Assembly (NCBI GenBank): GCA_000002435.2
Contig: AACB03000016.1
Strand: one strand, 5' to 3'
DNA from: Giardia intestinalis
Lineage: Eukaryota
Length of the DNA stretch: 10,865 nt
Shown here piece after piece: positions 1 through 10,865 of the stretch. The notes under the pieces are model-generated. The model did not search any database. It saw only the letters and a list, made by a program, of their open reading frames with translations, and was not told where the DNA came from. Within the stretch, counting starts at the first letter, position 1. Each line of letters opens with the position of its first letter. The position numbers and the translations under genes were made by a program.

Positions 1-3000
1 TATCTGCACCAACGGAGTCTGAGCACAGAATGCACTCGCTGCCCGGTGTCTTAACTGATGCCTTGTTTTGGAAAACACTTCCGTCAGCCTTGCAAGCGGC
101 ACATACCCCACCGACTGCATTGGTGCATATAAGTTCTCCGGGAGACGCCCCTGTTTTATAACGCCGCCCATGAAGAGGAAGTACCCGTCGCCGCCACATT
201 TACCACACGAGGTGTCCGTGCCCTCTATTGCGGCTCCGGCCGATTGCGTGCACTTTGCCGTCTTTGTGACGAGATCGTCCCCGAACGCCGTGCAGACACC
301 GTCGATGGGTGCGAAGCCCTGCTTGCATTGTGTACACGCTTGGGCTGATCCTATAGTTACCAGTTTGTCGACCTCGCATTGGAAAGACGGAGGGGCCCTG
401 CATGCGTTTGCGGCTCGTCCAGTGCGTGCCCCTCCGCGCATGCTTTGCACTTGGCTGTGCCCGTGTCCCTGTCGGCGCATCACAGGCCGCACAGTTTGCC
501 ACTCCTTTGTTGCTATCTGCACCAACGGAGTCTGAGCACAGAATGCACTCGCTGCCCGGTGTCTTAACTGATGCCTTGTTTTGGAAAACACTTCCGTCAG
601 CCTTGCAGCGGCACATACCCCACCGACTGCATTGGTGCATATAAGTTCTCCGGGAGACGCCCCTGTTTTATAACAGCCGCCCATGAAGAGGAAGTACCCG
701 TCGCCGCCACATTTACCACACGAGGTGTCCGTGCCCTCTATTGCGGCTCCGCCCGATTGCGTGCACTTTGCCGTCTTTGTGACGAGATCGTCCCCGAACG
801 CCGTGCAGACACCGTCGATGGGTGCGAAGCCCTGCTTGCATTGTGTACACGCTTGGGCTGATCCTATAGTTACCAGTTTGTCGACCTCGCATTGGAAAGA
901 CGGAGGGGCCCTGCATGCGTTTGCGGCCTCGTCCAGTGCGTGCCCCTCCGCGCATGCTTTGCACTTGGCTGTGCCCGTGTCCCCTGTCGGCGCATCACAG
1001 GCCGCACAGTTTGCCACTCCTTTGTTGCTATCTGCACCAACGGAGTCTGAGCACAGAATGCACTCGCTGCCCGGTGTCTTAACTGATGCCTTGTTTTGGA
1101 AAACACTTCCGTCAGCCTTGCAAGCGGCACATACCCCACCGACTGCATTGGTGCATATAAGTTCTCCGGGAGACGCCCCTGTTTTATAACAGCCGCCCAT
1201 GAAGAGGAAGTACCCGTCGCCGCCACATTTACCACACGAGGTGTCCGTGCCCTCTATTGCGGCTCCGCCGATTGCGTGCACTTTGCCGTCTTTGTGACGA
1301 GATCGTCCCGAACGCCGTGCAGACACCGTCGATGGGTGCGAAGCCCTGCTTGCATTGTGTACACGCTTGGGCTGATCCTATAGTTACCAGTTTGTCGACC
1401 TCGCATTGGAAAGACGGAGGGGCCCTGCATGCGTTGCGGCCTCGTCCAGTGCGTGCCCTCCGCGCATGCTTTGCACTTGGCTGTGCCCGTGTCCCCTGTC
1501 GGCGCATCACAGGCCGCACAGTTTGCCACTCCTTTGTTGCTATCTGCACCAACGGAGTCTGAGCACAGAATGCACTCGCTGCCCGGTGTCTTAACTGATG
1601 CCTTGTTTTGGAAAACACTTCCGTCAGCCTTGCAAGCGGCACATACCCCACCGACTGCATTGGTGCATATAAGTTCTCCGGGAGACGCCCCTGTTTTATA
1701 ACAGCCGCCCATGAAGAGGAAGTACCCGTCGCCGCCACATTTACCACACGAGGTGTCCGTGCCCTCTATTGCGGCTCCGCCCGATTGCGTGCACTTTGCC
1801 GTCTTTGTGACGAGATCGTCCCCGAACGCCGTGCAGACACCGTCGATGGGTGCGAAGCCCTGCTTGCATTGTGTACACGCTTGGGCTGATCCTATAGTTA
1901 CCAGTTTGTCGACCTCGCATTGGAAAGACGGAGGGGCCCTGCATGCGTTTGCGGCCTCGTCCAGTGCGTGCCCCTCCGCGCATGCTTGCACTTGGCTGTG
2001 CCCGTGTCCCCTGTCGGCGCATCACAGGCCGCACAGTTTGCCACTCCTTTGTTGCTATCTGCACCAACGGAGTCTGAGCACAGAATGCACTCGCTGCCCG
2101 GTGTCTTAACTGATGCCTTGTTTGGAAAACACTTCCGTCAGCCTTGCAAGCGGCACATACCCCACCGACTGCATTGGTGCATATAAGTTCTCCGGGAGAC
2201 GCCCCTGTTTTATAACAGCCGCCCATGAAGAGGAAGTACCCGTCGCCGCCACATTTACCACACGAGGTGTCCGTGCCCTCTATTGCGGCTCCGCCCGATT
2301 GCGTGCACTTTGCCGTCTTTGTGACGAGATCGTCCCCGAACGCCGTGCAGACACCGTCGATGGGTGCGAAGCCCTGCTTGCATTGTGTACACGCTTGGGC
2401 TGATCCTATAGTTACCAGTTTGTCGACCTCGCATTGGAAAGACGGAGGGGCCCTGCATGCGTTTGCGGCCTCGTCCAGTGCGTGCCCCTCCGCGCATGCT
2501 TTGCACTTGGCTGTGCCCGTGTCCCCTGTCGGCGCATCACAGGCCGCACAGTTTGCCACTCCTTTGTTGCTATCTGCACCAACGGAGTCTGAGCACAGAA
2601 TGCACTCGCTGCCCGGTGTCTTAACTGATGCCTTGTTTTGGAAAACACTTCCGTCAGCCTTGCAAGCGGCACATACCCCACCGACTGCATTGGTGCATAT
2701 AAGTTCTCCGGGAGACGCCCCTGTTTTATAACAGCCGCCCATGAAGAGGAAGTACCCGTCGCCGCCACATTTACCACACGAGGTGTCCGTGCCCTCTATT
2801 GCGGCTCCGCCCGATTGCGTGCACTTTGCCGTCTTTGTGACGAGATCGTCCCCGAACGCCGTGCAGACACCGTCGATGGGTGCGAAGCCCTGCTTGCATT
2901 GTGTACACGCTTGGGCTGATCCTATAGTTACCAGTTTGTCGACCTCGCATTGGAAAGACGGAGGGGCCCTGCATGCGTTTGCGGCCTCGTCCAGTGCGTG

Positions 3001-3528
3001 CCCCTCCGCGCATGCTTTGCACTTGGCTGTGCCCGTGTCCCCTGTCGGCGCATCACAGGCCGCACAGTTTGCCACTCCTTTGTTGCTATCTGCACCAACG
3101 GAGTCTGAGCACAGAATGCACTCGCTGCCCGGTGTCTTAACTGATGCCTTGTTTTGGAAAACACTTCCGTCAGCCTTGCAAGCGGCACATACCCCACCGA
3201 CTGCATTGGTGCATATAAGTTCTCCGGGAGACGCCCCTGTTTTATAACAGCCGCCCATGAAGAGGAAGTACCCGTCGCCGCCACATTTACCACACGAGGT
3301 GTCCGTGCCCTCTATTGCGGCTCCGCCCGATTGCGTGCACTTTGCCGTCTTTGTGACGAGATCGTCCCCGAACGCCGTGCAGACACCGTCGATGGGTGCG
3401 AAGCCCTGCTTGCATTGTGTACACGCTTGGGCTGATCCTATAGTTACCAGTTTGTCGACCTCGCATTGGAAAGACGGAGGGGCCCTGCATGCGTTTGCGG
3501 CCTCGTCCAGTGCGTGCCCCTCCGCGCA
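1..3528. repeat. Tandem array of a 516-bp unit. Copy starts at 1, 514, 1029, 1541, 2056, 2571 and 3087, so at least 6.85 copies in the window, and the array continues past the left edge. Copies are near-identical apart from single-base homopolymer indels and one substitution at 239.
   Basis: The string tatctgcaccaacggagtctgagcacagaatgcactcgctgcccggtgtc recurs with periods of 513, 515, 512, 515, 515 and 516 bp. Plus-strand ORF-track entries (683, 1711, 2225, 2741, 3257) repeat identical proteins at the same period. The repeat ends at 3528, where the sequence diverges into unique N-terminal coding sequence. Confidence 0.95.
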
Positions 3529-3654
3529 TTCCATGGGACTGCTTATTCCCTCTATTGTTCCGCACTGATTGCCAGTTGCGCGACTGTTTCTAGTGCCTCC
3601 AGCGCAGTTTGCAGCAAGCACATTCAGCACGAATAGAAGCTCTACTACCAACAT
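1..3654 (-). CDS. Cysteine-rich repetitive surface protein, VSP-like / high-cysteine membrane protein-like with furin-like CXXC repeats. 5' partial: ATG at 3654, C-terminal end beyond the left edge. Frame is intact from 3654 to ~2121 (42-aa unique N-terminus plus ~2.7 repeat units). Left of that, the copies carry frameshifting 1-bp deletions.
   Basis: The minus ORF 1741..3654 begins MLVVELLFVLNVLAANCAGG, a hydrophobic signal-peptide-like N-terminus. It continues with 172-aa units of about 12% Cys containing CTQCK, CGKCGGDGYFLFMGGCY, CAACKADG, CILCSDS, CAACDAP and CKAC. The CXXC spacing and the GGCY motif are hallmarks of Giardia variant-specific surface proteins. After SVFQ, at the ttt-for-tttt site at 2120, the translation changes to an R/H-rich nonsense tail, which marks a frameshift. 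ORFs 1254..1991, 1229..1747, 870..1235 and 200..640 recover the same Cys-rich frame piecewise. Confidence 0.6.
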
Positions 3655-3934
3655 TGTAGTATACCTTGGGCTTTACACCGACTCCTGGCGATAGCAGTGC
3701 CTGGGCGGGCCCCTTCCTCCAGGGAGAGTTCTAGTTCGAGGGCGACCGCCAGGGAGGAGCCCGGTGCTGTGTTACTGGCCCTTGTTCGATGCTTGGCCAG
3801 TCTGAAGGCTGGGGCGGGTCGCTGATAATATATAGTGCGACGTATCGTCCCACTGACGCATCTAAGCCTGTGCGCTCCTCAATTGCTCCGCGGGCATCCC
3901 AGCCCAAGCAGCCTCTGAGGCCCACGGATGATGC

Positions 3935-3976
3935 GGTCGGCTAACTCAGTCGGTAGAGCAACACTGGAGTCTGAAG
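3935..3976 (+). other. Solitary degenerate fragment of a tRNA 5' portion (acceptor 5' strand plus D arm), related to the tRNA in the downstream array. Not a functional tRNA.
   Basis: gcggtcggctaactcagtcggtagagc at 3933-3959 matches the array unit gcggtcggttagctcagtcggtagagc at 25 of 27 positions. The following aacactggagtctgaag only loosely resembles the anticodon-arm part of the unit. No T arm or acceptor 3' strand could be found. Confidence 0.4.
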
Positions 3977-6512
3977 TCTGAGATCAGATGCCCTCGATCT
4001 CGGGGGAAGAACTCCTATGCCCGCCTCCCCTAGAAGCTGCCGCTCCTCGCGGTGCCCCCTAGGACTTCCTTCTCTCTGGCCCGTCGGGGCCAACCATCGT
4101 CTGGCATCTAGTGAGCACCCGCTGTCCCGGGCCTTGCGTCGGTCACAGGACCTGGCCTCAGAGCAGTTGACTCTGGCGCTCCGTGACGAAGATGGGATAC
4201 GCCACGACCCCGGGTGCCTACCCCGTTCCTCGGGGTGCCTCTTCGTCTTCTCATGAAGCGAGTCATCAGTCCCGAGTATGATCGGAGGGTGCGCTCCCCG
4301 TGCGCCTCTGTCTTGGAGTCATAGTACGCGTTCGTGGATGCCGGCGGAGTACTCCTATACGTTGGCGTCGGGGAGGAGGCTCGGCCCTCTGCTCACGGAT
4401 CGCAGGGCGCTCTTGCAGGTGCTCCGTCACCCAGCACGAGATCATGTCGACGCTCACCCTGTGCAGTGTGTCTGGCTCAGTGATGTGTGGGCTGGTCCAT
4501 CCTCACACCGCACACTTGGGGTGATGCTTCGGTCCACCGAGGCGTCGTCCAAAGCATCAGAAGCGATCAGGACCGGTTCGCTGTCAGGCCGTCTCTCTCT
4601 ACAACCGGCACCCGTCTACTCGATGGTGTCAAAGGATTACGCAGCTGCTGTGGTAAGCGCCCAGCAAGTGGCCCAGGCCGCCACCACTCTCCGGTGCAGG
4701 CAGGATTAGTCCACTTCTGCCAGCCAGACACTCCAAGGATCCCGACTTGCCTGTCGAGGGATTCACATGGGTCACGTGTGGGTCCGTCTCGACCAGCGTG
4801 GTGAGTGATTAGTGCCATCACTAGCTTCAAGCTCTCCGTTGCCTTGGAAGCTCCTTAAGACCGGCCAGGAAGAAGGCCTCCTGCTCCTCAGTGCTCCCAC
4901 ACCCAGTGTTGACCGTCGAGCCAATCGCTTCGCCGGGCCTATCGCTTCTGTGACTGCCCCGTCGCGTCGCTGTCGTCGGCACGGGCAGTGAGCGGGGCAT
5001 CTCCTCAGCTCCTGGCGAGCAGGTTCTGTCCCGCGCAGCACAGAAGCATGCGCAGGGTCCCGAGGGACCGAGTCCAGGGGTGCAGCGTGTCGCAGCCGGA
5101 GGAAGGCCTCGACGCAGCTCCTTGGAACTGTGTTGTGGAGCGAATCATGATCGTCCGTTCATCGTGCTTGTCCTGCCCTGTCTCTGGGGAAGGGCTAGAC
5201 GGAACCGTACGGAGCACGCATTCCATCCTATGGATCGCGCCGAGGATCTCGCTGAAGGCCTGCACCCGGATGGGCTCGCCAGCGCAGGCCCGGAGACTTC
5301 GAGCCCCGCGGACTGGCCGTCCGTGCTCTCCGATGGCTGAGGGGGCTCTTGTCTCTCAGGGGCCAGGCCGTCCTGATCCGGCCCTCTGGATAGCAAGGTG
5401 CTGGTCGTCGGTGGCGCTGTTAGGGGGCAGCTCCCCCTCGAGGCGAGGCTTCAGGCCGGGCAGTGGGGTGGTGAATGCCGCTCCTCCGCTTCCCCGCTGT
5501 GTGGGGAGGTACCCTCCCCTGAGCACGTTCGCACGAAGGGCGCTGAAGAGGACGTCCTTCTCCATCCCCGCTGCCCCACTCAGTAGCACCCTGCATCCGG
5601 TGTCCGTGCTGCATACGTCTGGACGGCCTCGCCGCGGAGGGTCTTCGCGCAGGACAGGCACGTGCTCTTCCGCTCCTACTACTTTGGCGTTCGCCCGGTG
5701 CCGCTCCAGCGCAGAGTGCTCCTCTCCGTCAGGTTCCTAAGGTCCTCGTTCTCGCTGTGATACCTGATCTATCCCTCTTGAGGGGTGGGGTTCACGGTGC
5801 ACTGGTGCGTGTCCGGGGCGACGTCTCCCTTGTAGAGTTCTGCAGGTTCCACGACCCTCTGGGGATAGCCAGCGACTGGGACCCCTGTTTGAGGCTAGGG
5901 CTGGCCTGGCTCCACCGGGCCGCGAACAACTCAAGGGCGCTCTGGTGTCGCTGGTCTCTCAACCGCACACTCGACCTGTCTTAGCAGATAACGGGTCGTG
6001 CCTGGGCACCTCCGGGAAGCGCTCCGGTCCGATGCTTTCTGTCCGGGGCATCACGGCAGGCAACGGTGAGGGCCCACGAGGGACACCGCACTCGGGCGCC
6101 GGGGCATGGTGCATGGGCTGGCACCGTCTGTCTGTCGCAAGGCTGCAGAAGGAGCTCAGACGGGGAGGGTTCCCGAGACGTGCTGCTCAGGGCCCTCCGG
6201 TGATGTGAAGGAGGCGTGGCAGCTCCTCGTGCTGTGGATCGCATAGGAGGTCCCCGATGGTGCAGTCTCTTAGTGAACTCCAGCATCCTTGAGCCAGTTC
6301 GTGTAGTCAGCGAGTGACCCCATTGGGACCATTGAGAGCCTGCCACCATGCGCCGCTCTCCATGACAGGGAGGTGCGGGCCCCCTGCTCACTCTATCGGC
6401 TGCTCTCTAGACTCTCTTCTTCGGGCCTCTACAAGCCCTCCTCGGCGGCTTCCCGTCTGGGCCTCTCCCAAAGGCTCGGACTCTCAGACCTCGAGGGTGC
6501 GCAGAGGGCTGG

Positions 6513-9152
6513 CGGGTGCTGGGCCGGCGGGGGGTCCGGCGAGGGGCCGCGGTCGGTTAGCTCAGTCGGTAGAGCGTCAGTCTGATAAGCTGAAGGCGGG
6601 TGCTGGGCCGGCGGGGGGGTCCGGCGAGGGGCCGCGGTCGGTTAGCTCAGTCGGTAGAGCGTCAGTCTGATAAGCTGAAGGCGGGTGCTGGGCCGGCGGG
6701 GGGTCCGGCGAGGGGCCGCGGTCGGTTAGCTCAGTCGGTAGAGCGTCAGTCTGATAAGCTGAAGGCGGGTGCTGGGCCGGCGGGGGGTCCGGCGAGGGGC
6801 CGCGGTCGGTTAGCTCAGTCGGTAGAGCGTCAGTCTGATAAGCTGAAGGCGGGTGCTGGGCCGGCGGGGGGTCCGGCGAGGGGCCGCGGTCGGTTAGCTC
6901 AGTCGGTAGAGCGTCAGTCTGATAAGCTGAAGGCGGGTGCTGGGCCGGCGGGGGGTCCGGCGAGGGGCCGCGGTCGGTTAGCTCAGTCGGTAGAGCGTCA
7001 GTCTGATAAGCTGAAGGCGGGTGCTGGGCCGGCGGGGGGTCCGGCGAGGGGCCGCGGTCGGTTAGCTCAGTCGGTAGAGCGTCAGTCTGATAAGCTGAAG
7101 GCGGGTGCTGGGCCGGCGGGGGGTCCGGCGAGGGGCCGCGGTCGGTTAGCTCAGTCGGTAGAGCGTCAGTCTGATAAGCTGAAGGCGGGTGCTGGGCCGG
7201 CGGGGGGTCCGGCGAGGGGCCGCGGTCGGTTAGCTCAGTCGGTAGAGCGTCAGTCTGATAAGCTGAAGGCGGGTGCTGGGCCGGCGGGGGGTCCGGCGAG
7301 GGGCCGCGGTCGGTTAGCTCAGTCGGTAGAGCGTCAGTCTGATAAGCTGAAGGCGGGTGCTGGGCCGGCGGGGGGTCCGGCGAGGGGCCGCGGTCGGTTA
7401 GCTCAGTCGGTAGAGCGTCAGTCTGATAAGCTGAAGGCGGGTGCTGGGCCGGCGGGGGGTCCGGCGAGGGGCCGCGGTCGGTTAGCTCAGTCGGTAGAGC
7501 GTCAGTCTGATAAGCTGAAGGCGGGTGCTGGGCCGGCGGGGGGTCCGGCGAGGGGCCGCGGTCGGTTAGCTCAGTCGGTAGAGCGTCAGTCTGATAAGCT
7601 GAAGGCGGGTGCTGGGCCGGCGGGGGGTCCGGCGAGGGGCCGCGGTCGGTTAGCTCAGTCGGTAGAGCGTCAGTCTGATAAGCTGAAGGCGGGTGCTGGG
7701 CCGGCGGGGGGTCCGGCGAGGGGCCGCGGTCGGTTAGCTCAGTCGGTAGAGCGTCAGTCTGATAAGCTGAAGGCGGGTGCTGGGCCGGCGGGGGGTCCGG
7801 CGAGGGGCCGCGGTCGGTTAGCTCAGTCGGTAGAGCGTCAGTCTGATAAGCTGAAGGCGGGTGCTGGGCCGGCGGGGGGTCCGGCGAGGGGCCGCGGTCG
7901 GTTAGCTCAGTCGGTAGAGCGTCAGTCTGATAAGCTGAAGGCGGGTGCTGGGCCGGCGGGGGGTCCGGCGAGGGGCCGCGGTCGGTTAGCTCAGTCGGTA
8001 GAGCGTCAGTCTGATAAGCTGAAGGCGGGTGCTGGGCCGGCGGGGGGTCCGGCGAGGGGCCGCGGTCGGTTAGCTCAGTCGGTAGAGCGTCAGTCTGATA
8101 AGCTGAAGGCGGGTGCTGGGCCGGCGGGGGGTCCGGCGAGGGGCCGCGGTCGGTTAGCTCAGTCGGTAGAGCGTCAGTCTGATAAGCTGAAGGCGGGTGC
8201 TGGGCCGGCGGGGGGTCCGGCGAGGGGCCGCGGTCGGTTAGCTCAGTCGGTAGAGCGTCAGTCTGATAAGCTGAAGGCGGGTGCTGGGCCGGCGGGGGGT
8301 CCGGCGAGGGGCCGCGGTCGGTTAGCTCAGTCGGTAGAGCGTCAGTCTGATAAGCTGAAGGCGGGTGCTGGGCCGGCGGGGGGTCCGGCGAGGGGCCGCG
8401 GTCGGTTAGCTCAGTCGGTAGAGCGTCAGTCTGATAAGCTGAAGGCGGGTGCTGGGCCGGCGGGGGGTCCGGCGAGGGGCCGCGGTCGGTTAGCTCAGTC
8501 GGTAGAGCGTCAGTCTGATAAGCTGAAGGCGGGTGCTGGGCCGGCGGGGGGTCCGGCGAGGGGCCGCGGTCGGTTAGCTCAGTCGGTAGAGCGTCAGTCT
8601 GATAAGCTGAAGGCGGGTGCTGGGCCGGCGGGGGGTCCGGCGAGGGGCCGCGGTCGGTTAGCTCAGTCGGTAGAGCGTCAGTCTGATAAGCTGAAGGCGG
8701 GTGCTGGGCCGGCGGGGGGTCCGGCGAGGGGCCGCGGTCGGTTAGCTCAGTCGGTAGAGCGTCAGTCTGATAAGCTGAAGGCGGGTGCTGGGCCGGCGGG
8801 GGTCCGGCGAGGGGCCGCGGTCGGTTAGCTCAGTCGGTAGAGCGTCAGTCTGATAAGCTGAAGGCGGGTGCTGGGCCGGCGGGGGTCCGGCGAGGGGCCG
8901 CGGTCGGTTAGCTCAGTCGGTAGAGCGTCAGTCTGATAAGCTGAAGGCGGGTGCTGGGCCGGCGGGGGGTCCGGCGAGGGGCCGCGGTCGGTTAGCTCAG
9001 TCGGTAGAGCGTCAGTCTGATAAGCTGAAGGCGGGTGCTGGGCCGGCGGGGGGTCCGGCGAGGGGCCGCGGTCGGTTAGCTCAGTCGGTAGAGCGTCAGT
9101 CTGATAAGCTGAAGGCGGGTGCTGGGCCGGCGGGGGGTCCGGCGAGGGGCGC
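6513..9152 (+). repeat. 31 tandem copies of an 84-bp unit. Each unit is a 38-nt G-rich spacer (cgggtgctgggccggcggggggtccggcgaggggccgc) plus the first 46 nt of a tRNA (ggtcggttagctcagtcggtagagcgtcagtctgataagctgaagg; positions 1-46 covering the acceptor 5' strand, D arm with A box, and the complete anticodon stem-loop). tRNA-half starts are at 6551, 6636, then about every 84 bp to 9069. Copies are identical except for G-run and C-run length variants.
   Basis: The period was measured directly as 85, 84, 84 and so on. Each truncated unit matches the complete tRNA at 9153 through ...gctgaagg and then diverges (cgggtg for tcggggg) inside the variable loop. No unit except the last has a T arm / B box. 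Confidence 0.95.
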
Positions 9153-9224
9153 GGTCGGTTAGCTCAGTCGGTAGAGCGTCAGTCTGATAAGCTGAAGGTC
9201 GGGGGTTCGAGCCCCCACCGACCA
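9153..9224 (+). tRNA. Complete tRNA gene, Ile-type with anticodon GAU (isoleucine, reads AUC/AUU). It is the terminal, intact member of the 84-bp array.
   Basis: The cloverleaf was read by hand. Acceptor GGTCGGT / ACCGACC, 7 bp. D arm GCTC-AGTCGGTA-GAGC. Anticodon arm TCAGT-CTGATAA-GCTGA, with U33 and anticodon GAT at 34-36. Variable loop AGGTC. T arm GGGGG-TTCGAG(C)-CCCCC. Discriminator A at 9224. There is no encoded CCA, as expected for a eukaryote. The overall sequence is close to eukaryotic tRNA-Ile(AAU) and bacterial tRNA-Ile(GAU) (CTGATAAG...AGGTCGG.GGTTCGAG). The T loop is 1 nt shorter than canonical: 6 nt if the stem is GGGGG/CCCCC. That may be a C-run undercall, since homopolymer-length noise is evident elsewhere in the window. 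Confidence 0.75.
9160..9212 (+). promoter_or_regulatory. Internal Pol III promoter elements of the complete tRNA. A box TAGCTCAGTCGG at 9160-9171. B box GGTTCGAGCCC at 9203-9213, approximately.
   Basis: Matches to the A-box consensus TRGCNNAGTGG and B-box consensus GGTTCGANTCC. The 31 truncated units each keep an A box but have no B box. No run of four or more T follows the tRNA; there is only cacTTTgtcTTcc. Confidence 0.5.
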
Positions 9225-9240
9225 CTTTGTCTTCCATAAT

Positions 9241-9295
9241 GGGTCCTCTGTGGTGGGTCCTCTGTGGTGGGTCCTCTGTGGTGGGTCCTCGTGAG
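9241..9295. repeat. 15-bp minisatellite gggtcctctgtggtg, about 3.6 copies, 17 bp downstream of the tRNA 3' end.
   Basis: Direct reading: gggtcctctgtggtg at 9241, 9256 and 9271, with a partial copy gggtcctcgt at 9286. Confidence 0.9.
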
Positions 9296-9792
9296 CCTGG
9301 ACGGGCAGTCGTGCCTAGGGGAGTGCACCGGGGACAAAGTGGTGGGAGAGGTGTCCGGCGGCGTGCGGAGGTGCTGGTGCGAGCGGGGCCTCCTGCCGGC
9401 ACTGGACAGATCCGAGTGTGTGCCCGCAGCTGAGTGTCCCCCTGATATATACTCATGACGTTTCCACAATTCTTCATAGAGTTGTGAATATCTGATATCT
9501 TTAAAAGTAGTCACAAATTGTATGCATTTGCTATGACGATCCTTGCACAGATTGTTATTAAATATTGCTAAAACTAACCGTGTGTTCAATCTTCAAATAA
9601 AAGATTTAGATCTAAATAACAACATACATTTGGACACAGCCTTCTGAGAGCGCCAACTACTTTCACGTTTTAATCTTGTCCTCATCTCTACTTCTAATTC
9701 TAGACAAGTTCCATTTCGCTGATTGCCTAACTTTTAGTAAACCAAGGCGCTGCAAATTATCACTATATCAAACTTCTAATGTCTTAGAGTTC

Positions 9793-9812: not shown

Positions 9813-10257
9813 TTAATTAATATTTGCAAGCTCAAACTGATCGTGCGCTGTTGACGCCTTGACGATGGCTTTGGTAGATGCTTCGCAAAAGCGCCCATTC
9901 ATTATTATTTCATCTAAGACATGATATGCCTTAAGGTAGTTGAAAATAAGGTCAAGCTCGCTTACACCTCCAAAGTATCTATCGAGACACGTAGCAAAGA
10001 AGTGGATCATTTCATGTGCTAGTAGCTTGTTGTCTGAATTCTCAACTGCAAAGACAATCGTAAGGTCTGCATACTGCCTTAAGATAAGAGAACCCTCTAT
10101 CCCAGTCGATAATCCCATTAGAAAGCGAGGCGTGGAGCTTCACAGTCCGTATAGCAAGCTGAATTGCGGCGGCTTGCTCAGCTGCCAGTAGGACCTTATA
10201 CCACTTGAGCAGCCGGATCTCGCTCTGTCCGTTGAATATGAGAACAAATTCAATCAT
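9813..10257 (-). CDS. Adaptor protein (AP) complex sigma small subunit, clathrin-adaptor sigma-adaptin family. About 147 aa, with one frameshift near 10094-10100. Best reconstruction: ...IIDWDRG/SLILRQYADL... if one base is removed from the ggg or tt run.
   Basis: The two minus ORFs 10042..10257 (MIEFVLIFNGQSEIRLLKWY...IIDWDRG) and 9813..10118 (...SLILRQYADLTIVFAVENSDNKLLAHEMIHFFATCLDRYFGGVSELDLIFNYLKAYHVLDEIIMNG...) overlap in different frames. Joined, they align colinearly with sigma-adaptins, for example the motifs MIxFxLxxNRxGKxRLxKWY, the YKRYAxLYFxxxxExxDNEL motif, and YFGNVCELDLIFNFxKxYxILDE. The stop TAA is at 9813-9815. The ATG at 10255-10257 is immediately preceded by an AT-rich tract, TTTAAAATAAATG. 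Confidence 0.8.
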
Positions 10258-10331
10258 TTATTTTAAACAAAAACATTGTTTATGAGCAAGGGATCTGAGA
10301 AGGGTGACACGCCAGCGATAGCCATGCTAAA
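10258..10331. promoter_or_regulatory. 74-bp divergent intergenic region between the AP-sigma gene (minus) and the downstream ORF (plus). AT-rich, initiator-like tracts abut both ATGs: ...gtttaaaataaATG on the minus side and ...gctaaaATG on the plus side.
   Basis: Very short 5' leaders and AT-rich tracts directly on the start codons are the known promoter style of Giardia and other diplomonads. The evidence is compositional only. Confidence 0.35.
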
Positions 10332-10865
10332 ATGCGTGAAGAAAGCTGTGATCCGACACTATTTGGAGTTTATGACGGGTATAGGGATATCATAGTGATC
10401 AAGTATGATCCAGAGAGTGAGACTCTCGTTAACTTCACAATAGATGAGCTACGCACCATTAGAATGCCTCAGTACAGAAGTATCCTTCTCAGGTATGAAA
10501 ACATACCCATCACTAATGTCCACTTTGGAACTGTGGTACGAAAATGCAGTGACCTATCTCTTGATGACTTGACGGCCTCTCCTGTTACTCCAGAGCTCTG
10601 CACGAAAATATTCATTGATCCAGAAACTAAAGCCCTTCCACCAATTCTAATTTATATCCCAACATGGGCTACGCAATCAGACACACCCGACTCTTCTAGT
10701 TCACTTCCGATTAATGCCCACATTATTTCTGCATTGTTAGAGAACTCTCCAATTGTCGCTATCTGCAAATCGTTTACTAATATAGACAGTTTAACATTCA
10801 AACCAATTTCAAGAAAATCTGTTCCGCAGATCTCTGATACACCTGGAGCAAGGCCAGATCCTGCC
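10332..10865 (+). CDS. Hypothetical protein. 3' partial ORF, open to the window end, with no stop from 10308 to 10865. First in-frame ATG at 10332, giving at least 178 aa (MREESCDPTLFGVYDGYRDIIVIKYDPESETLVNFTIDELRTIRMPQYRSILLRYENIPITNVHFGTVVRKCSDLSLDDL...). No recognisable family.
   Basis: Hand translation of the frame containing 10332, 10464 and so on, checked codon by codon. It is absent from the ORF track, apparently because the track omits edge-truncated ORFs. An upstream ATG at 10282 lies in another frame and is closed after 38 aa. A homopolymer frameshift joining the two frames cannot be excluded. Confidence 0.5.
   Translation, partial: MREESCDPTLFGVYDGYRDIIVIKYDPESETLVNFTIDELRTIRMPQYRSILLRYENIPITNVHFGTVVRKCSDLSLDDLTASPVTPELCTKIFIDPETKALPPILIYIPTWATQSDTPDSSSSLPINAHIISALLENSPIVAICKSFTNIDSLTFKPISRKSVPQISDTPGARPDPA

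Follow-up and report, generated by a model that had tools for sequence, protein, structure and literature searches.

The stretch of Giardia DNA analysed here (contig AACB03000016.1 of assembly GCA_000002435.2; 10,865 nt, referred to below as the window) opens with a tandem array of one long cysteine-rich module whose reading frame is broken in several places. This raises the question of which gene the array belongs to, and whether its broken frame and its number of copies are properties of the organism or of the assembly. Positions 1-3654 of the minus strand are concluded, with a probability of roughly 95%, to represent the 5' four-fifths of vsp122 (GL50803_113357), a canonical variant-specific surface protein (VSP) gene, from WB or an isolate very closely related to it. 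Nothing about the gene is new here: earlier publications already cover vsp122 and its 516-bp repeat, the family to which it belongs and the unreliability of its assembled copy number; the initial annotation of the window had overlooked the earlier description of the gene and the repeat (PMC2996952).

Repeat finding and BLAST, employed in place of TRF, resolved positions 1-3529 into head-to-tail copies of a 516-bp unit (6.84 copies in total), in which six units are flanked by partial ones of 94 nt on the left and 349 nt on the right. TRF gave no report of this repeat solely because the longest period it considers is 500. Translation showed the minus strand to be the coding one. The ATG lies at 3654-3652, and the first 125 nt (about 42 codons) of the gene are unique sequence that leads up to the first module; to the left, the array extends past the window. 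The 172 aa encoded by one unit include 18 Cys (10.5%), six CXXC motifs and one GGCY motif, in keeping with the Cys content of about 10-12%, largely in CXXC pairs, and the GGCY motif that characterize VSPs. These measurements agree with the initial annotation, which had described at least 6.8 copies of a 516-bp/172-aa module behind 42 unique N-terminal residues. The single GGCY motif and the CXXC pairs that it assigned to the module were likewise recovered, but its figure of about 20 Cys was too high.

The identification as vsp122 is carried by exact protein matches. An exact-sequence look-up with the window N-terminus, three window modules and a DH-type C-terminus returned XP_001705598.1 ("VSP [Giardia lamblia ATCC 50803]", 620 aa). 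A three-module protein ending in VAGFLCWWFLCRGKA, a C-terminus taken from an optically read supplement, was also tried and had no exact match; it was the version with the DH-type C-terminus that matched. The same protein cluster holds KAE8304120.1 / XP_001705598.2 of the 2020 WB reference, a protein of 1480 aa (43 + 8 x 172 + 61) with eight identical modules, a C-terminal transmembrane segment and CRGKA. The N-termini of XP_001705598.1 and KAE8304120.1 are identical to that of the window, and with ten single-base deletions filled (see below) the window translation corresponds to residues 1-1221 of the 1480-aa protein with a single mismatch, Ala/Gly at 1142. With eight modules in the sequenced isolate as well, the gene would continue to the left of the window for 259 residues (about 780 nt). 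A 43-aa leader, n modules and a 61-aa tail give 276 aa for one module and 620 aa with 60 Cys for three. The supplementary table of Adam et al. 2010 lists vsp122 as GL50803_113357, TT_TR516, chromosome 4, CAATGTT, with 620 aa, 60 Cys and 18 CXXC, and the paper puts the tandem repeats of vsp genes in WB at 105 to 516 bp (PMC2996952); the name VSP-122 (GL50803_113357) is also in use in PMC5192507. KAE8304120.1 and the sigma adaptin KAE8304121.1 have consecutive numbers and share one contig of 2,761,001 bp. The window copy and WB vsp122 thus agree in N-terminus, module amino acid sequence, 516-bp unit, CAATGTT and sigma-adaptin neighbour, whereas the window copy stops at 6.84 units and differs by 10 homopolymer deletions and one Gly>Ala change.

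Membership in the VSP family is also supported by the features of the family. Pfam PF03302 (VSP) was matched with 39.3 bits against a cut-off of 31.4 (E = 5e-10), and a word-indexed protein search returned G. duodenalis VSPs with 44-64% identity, although this search missed the cluster with the exact WB and DH vsp122 proteins that is present in the collection. The module core YFLFMGGCY, the ECILCSD motif and the Cys framework are conserved in other G. duodenalis VSPs. The N-terminus contains a hydrophobic signal peptide, MLVVELLFVLNVLAA, recognized by inspection, which aligns with the leader of the WB VSP XP_001709557.1. The sequence CAATGTT at 3656-3650 fits the PyAatgTT consensus, as tabulated for vsp122; this initiator occurs in 41% of 260 5'-complete vsp genes and is therefore typical but not universal (PMC2996952). 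The conserved transmembrane segment and CRGKA are seen beyond the window, in the WB proteins of identical sequence and in the orthologue from isolate DH. In the latter, the polyadenylation signal ACTTAGGTAGTAAAC is found 6 nt past the stop codon; the extended consensus of this signal in VSP genes is ACTYAGRTAGTRAAY.

The initial annotation had proposed a Giardia gene similar to either VSPs or high-cysteine membrane proteins (HCMP/CRMP) and had named a membrane-anchored C-terminus and similarity to diplomonad cysteine-rich surface proteins as the checks to be made. Both were borne out, the first by the transmembrane segment and CRGKA of the full-length WB protein and the DH orthologue, the second by the VSP matches and the exact WB match. 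That vsp122 encodes an HCMP and not a VSP deserves hardly any credence. CXXC and GGCY motifs do occur in HCMPs as well (bioRxiv 10.1101/2022.03.07.483299), but an HCMP would be recognized by another transmembrane segment and a tail without CRGKA, and by the lack of the VSP initiator, while the sequence-identical full-length protein has the transmembrane segment of VSPs and CRGKA at its end, the CAATGTT initiator is present, and the gene has been annotated and published as a VSP.

The reading frame of the array is not intact as written. Alignment of the whole array to one clean unit revealed ten single-base deletions (at about 162, 413, 466, 606, 1267, 1306, 1433, 1455, 1985 and 2120), each of which falls within a homopolymer run of 2-4 bases. 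Three units (95-606, 1123-1634 and 1635-2148) are consequently out of frame and their translation contains stops, and the longest unbroken open reading frame (ORF) is 1741..3654 (-), 637 aa. These frame-breaking indels between copies had been overlooked when the copies were called perfect apart from one substitution in 3.5 kb. The substitution itself, at position 239, was correctly noticed; it is a C>G change on the plus strand that converts Gly to Ala at residue 1142 in the numbering of the WB protein.

The right end of the window was compared with four independent assemblies of the locus (L003, L005, L008 and L009). In 1.45 kb of flanking housekeeping sequence, seven single-base homopolymer indels are private to the window (9499, 9594, 9791, 10093, 10324, 10785 and 10814), and their positions agree relative to all four assemblies wherever the loci overlap, the alignment of L009 beginning at 9607 and thus beyond the first two sites. 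An extra C at ~10093 puts the sigma-adaptin gene out of frame, and a missing T at ~10324 does the same to a methyltransferase-domain gene, in which the indels at 10785 and 10814 lie as well. Because the same type of private indel also disrupts these flanking housekeeping genes, the window is very probably an unpolished long-read consensus and the frame breaks in vsp122 are consensus errors rather than biology. PacBio homopolymer frameshifts are known from Giardia drafts (PMC7000408). Taken at face value, the frameshifts would make vsp122 a decaying pseudogene in this isolate, of which only the first ~3.5 modules (637 aa) could be translated. The three units broken as written would fit such decay, and the annotation of WB by Xu et al. 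includes 208 pseudo-VSPs. Nevertheless, all ten changes are 1-nt homopolymer deletions with no stop-creating substitution among them, essential neighbour genes bear similar window-private indels that are absent from the four other assemblies, and in WB the reference protein is unbroken, its eight modules all perfect. A pseudogene is considered very improbable.

Several observations weigh against reading the locus as an error-containing copy of WB vsp122. The window is unlike every short-read assembly compared at position 10706, and positions 9424-9431 differ in three of the four assemblies, the fourth being L009, whose alignment starts further right. The substitution at position 239 could reflect a real variant module. 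The match to WB was made with protein sequence and not with WB reference DNA, and no contig record encoding the 637-aa window ORF or the 1480-aa WB protein was found. The window stops short of the 3' end of the gene, and neither the total copy number nor the transmembrane segment and CRGKA are visible for this assembly. Homogenisation of the array by unequal exchange or conversion, which is discussed at the end, is proposed from the identity of the copies only.

The number of modules depends on the assembly that is consulted. Three modules are found in the 2007 Sanger assembly of WB, eight in the 2020 PacBio assembly of WB, 1.08 in the 454 assembly of DH and at least 6.84 in this window. Adam et al. 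2010 had already cautioned about the condensation of repeats in assembly (PMC2996952), and in single-module short-read contigs a collapsed array is indistinguishable from a true single copy. This variation would be expected if the count in the window were itself an assembly artefact, with the array expanded or collapsed and the figure uninformative about the real gene. Such an artefact is unlikely, as an array of about 4.1 kb is readily spanned by long reads and at least 6.84 copies are consistent with the eight of the polished WB reference. The DH (assemblage AII) orthologue, ESU38233.1, is encoded at L003:14313-15143 (L003 being the DH locus, AHGT01000015.1) and consists in 276 aa of leader, one module, transmembrane segment and CRGKA. 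It resembles the window gene in locus, synteny and all of these parts, with repeat DNA that is 98.4-99.3% identical, and differs from it in two amino acids (I37R and K>R) and in having 1.08 modules, a number that may be real or may be due to 454 collapse.

The ectodomain of vsp122 is a concatemer, each unit of which corresponds roughly to a complete ectodomain in a minimal VSP. The single-module form of vsp122 aligns end to end, with 50% identity, to the complete 239-aa WB VSP XP_001709557.1. Leader, YFLFMGGCYKTG core, ECILCSD, transmembrane segment and CRGKA all align, but XP_001709557.1 has no tandem duplication and is without about 39 vsp122 residues (about 24-62), which comprise the end of the unique N-terminal part and the start of the first module. 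Repeats are present in about 36 of 136 WB VSPs, and in four VSPs the number of GGCY motifs exceeds two, at 4, 6, 8 and 13 (bioRxiv 10.1101/2022.03.07.483299); the one with eight probably corresponds to vsp122. VspA6/CRP170 (about 23 x 195-bp) and vspC5 (>20 x 105-bp) also carry an array between a short leader and a conserved 3' end, but their repeat sequences are unrelated and far shorter, whereas the vsp122 unit is a mini-ectodomain of 172 aa. A sequence search of the PDB with vsp122 detected no related solved structure. An AlphaFold model of the leader and one module reached a mean pLDDT of 69.6 (74-93 on average in blocks between residue 61 and about 180), and Foldseek returned no significant match in the PDB for it. 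The best hits were TNFR-type cysteine-rich domains (E = 0.07), and no claim about the fold is made.

The features of the window are collected in Table 1.

Table 1. Coordinates, strand and description of the features annotated in the window.
Feature	Position	Strand	Description
Module array	1..3529	-	6.84 copies, 516 bp = 172 aa each
Indels and substitution	162..2120		ten 1-base homopolymer deletions and substitution 239; three units out of frame
5' unique coding part	3530..3654	-	hydrophobic leader MLVVELLFVLNVLAA and about 27 more residues before the first module (translation)
Candidate VSP initiator CAATGTT around start codon	3650..3656	-	read off the sequence
Gene-poor GC-rich (0.58-0.67) region between VSP start and satellite	3657..6510		about 2.9 kb
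84-bp satellite x32	6511..9203	+	99% identity, GC 0.70, GC skew +0.36; not part of vsp122
Complete tRNA-Ile(GAU) gene	9153..9225	+	sole one, ends satellite; ARAGORN; Rfam RF00005 72.2 bits
Sigma-adaptin gene	9813..10257	-	out of frame in window; repaired = WB XP_001705601.1
5' end of conserved 686-688-aa methyltransferase-domain gene	10283..10865	+	out of frame; syntenic

The neighbouring genes place the locus. Repaired sigma adaptin is identical to WB XP_001705601.1 at 147 of 147 residues and 95.9% identical to the GS protein, in a cluster that holds WB, GS and P15 proteins; its complete identity to WB assigns the window to Giardia duodenalis assemblage A. A protein search with the plus-strand neighbour ORF had no match, although the methyltransferase-domain gene is present in all syntenic loci. 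Together with the missed vsp122 cluster, this result at first hinted at an unsampled species, a reading dropped in view of the identity of sigma adaptin to WB. The DH locus has the same order as the window, with the methyltransferase-domain gene followed by sigma adaptin, tRNA-Ile and a tRNA-derived repeat, a GC-rich spacer and the VSP gene. Close to the VSP start, up to ~4177, the spacer is 97% identical to that of DH, but most of the remainder reaches only 83-90% with many gaps, and none of the ORFs in 3657-6510 has a Pfam match. This fits the published remark that the surroundings of VSPs are gene-poor and variable. A scan of the window for bacterial-type promoters and terminators was set aside as not relevant to Giardia. 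Positions 9292-9456 (+) hold a short cysteine-rich reading frame, VSLDGQSCLGECTGDKVV...ECVPAAECPPD, whose sole match is a weak, sub-threshold one to Pfam TIL (E = 0.063); the frame could be what is left of a further gene for a Cys-rich protein.

The 84-bp satellite is the only feature of the window left without a placement and is unrelated to the VSP finding. Each unit combines a GC-rich spacer of 37 nt with the first ~47 nt of tRNA-Ile(GAU), which comprise the 5' acceptor strand, the D arm and the anticodon arm without the T arm. By the usual positions of the internal promoter boxes, the A box region is kept in these units and the B box belongs to the missing T arm. The partial tRNA copies score 27.8-28.9 bits on the Rfam tRNA model against a gathering score of 29, and the final unit runs on into the complete tRNA-Ile gene. 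The 5' end of tRNA-Ile also recurs on its own, as a 27-nt copy (25 of 27 nt identical; family D12) at 3933-3959 (+); this copy lies upstream of the satellite at a distance of 2.6 kb and is separated from the VSP start codon by about 280 bp. A 14-bp repeat, TGGGTCCTCTGTGG, begins 15 nt past the tRNA-Ile gene and covers 9240-9290 (+) in 3.6 copies. The tRNA-Ile-derived repeat of DH (L003:11030-11476) has this structure too but consists of 3.6 units of 103 bp and 1.9 units of 72 bp, as opposed to 32 of 84 bp in the window; either the satellite is highly polymorphic between sub-assemblages or it was collapsed in the 454 assembly. The edge of the satellite, at window ~9241-9607, is also where the short-read contigs L004-L009 all stop. 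No description of a tRNA-derived satellite was found in the literature, and Girep-1 (222-nt unit, nine repeats) is a different repeat. A functional connection between the satellite and the VSP locus, perhaps through a role as chromatin boundary or as a source of small RNAs, is given little chance.

As a discovery the vsp122 locus carries little weight, and its practical value lies in lessons on unpolished assemblies and repeat number. It is a clear case of an assembled repeat number that depends on technology (1, 3 and 8 modules with 454, Sanger and PacBio, respectively), and since the window is an error-prone consensus, ORF-based conclusions elsewhere in this assembly require polishing first.

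VSPs cover the trophozoite and a single VSP is expressed at a time, and in VspA6 the tandem repeat is reported to be immunodominant, with repeat numbers that differ between alleles of vspA6 and vspC5 (PMC2996952). Like the other VSPs, VSP-122 would belong to a set of roughly 130-300 alternative coat proteins that are expressed singly. It is built of a signal peptide, a short unique stretch, identical 172-aa Cys-rich modules (eight in WB), a transmembrane segment and CRGKA. Its repeats would lengthen the ectodomain and multiply one set of epitopes, and a change in copy number would alter both the length of the antigen and the valency of its epitopes. The nucleotide identity of all copies suggests recent amplification or continuing homogenisation of the array, probably by recent unequal exchange, or by slippage and gene conversion within the array. 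It is doubtful that the window records a real allele or isolate variant of vsp122. If it does, a copy number other than eight or the Gly>Ala module at position 239 would mean that the array is changing on laboratory time-scales.

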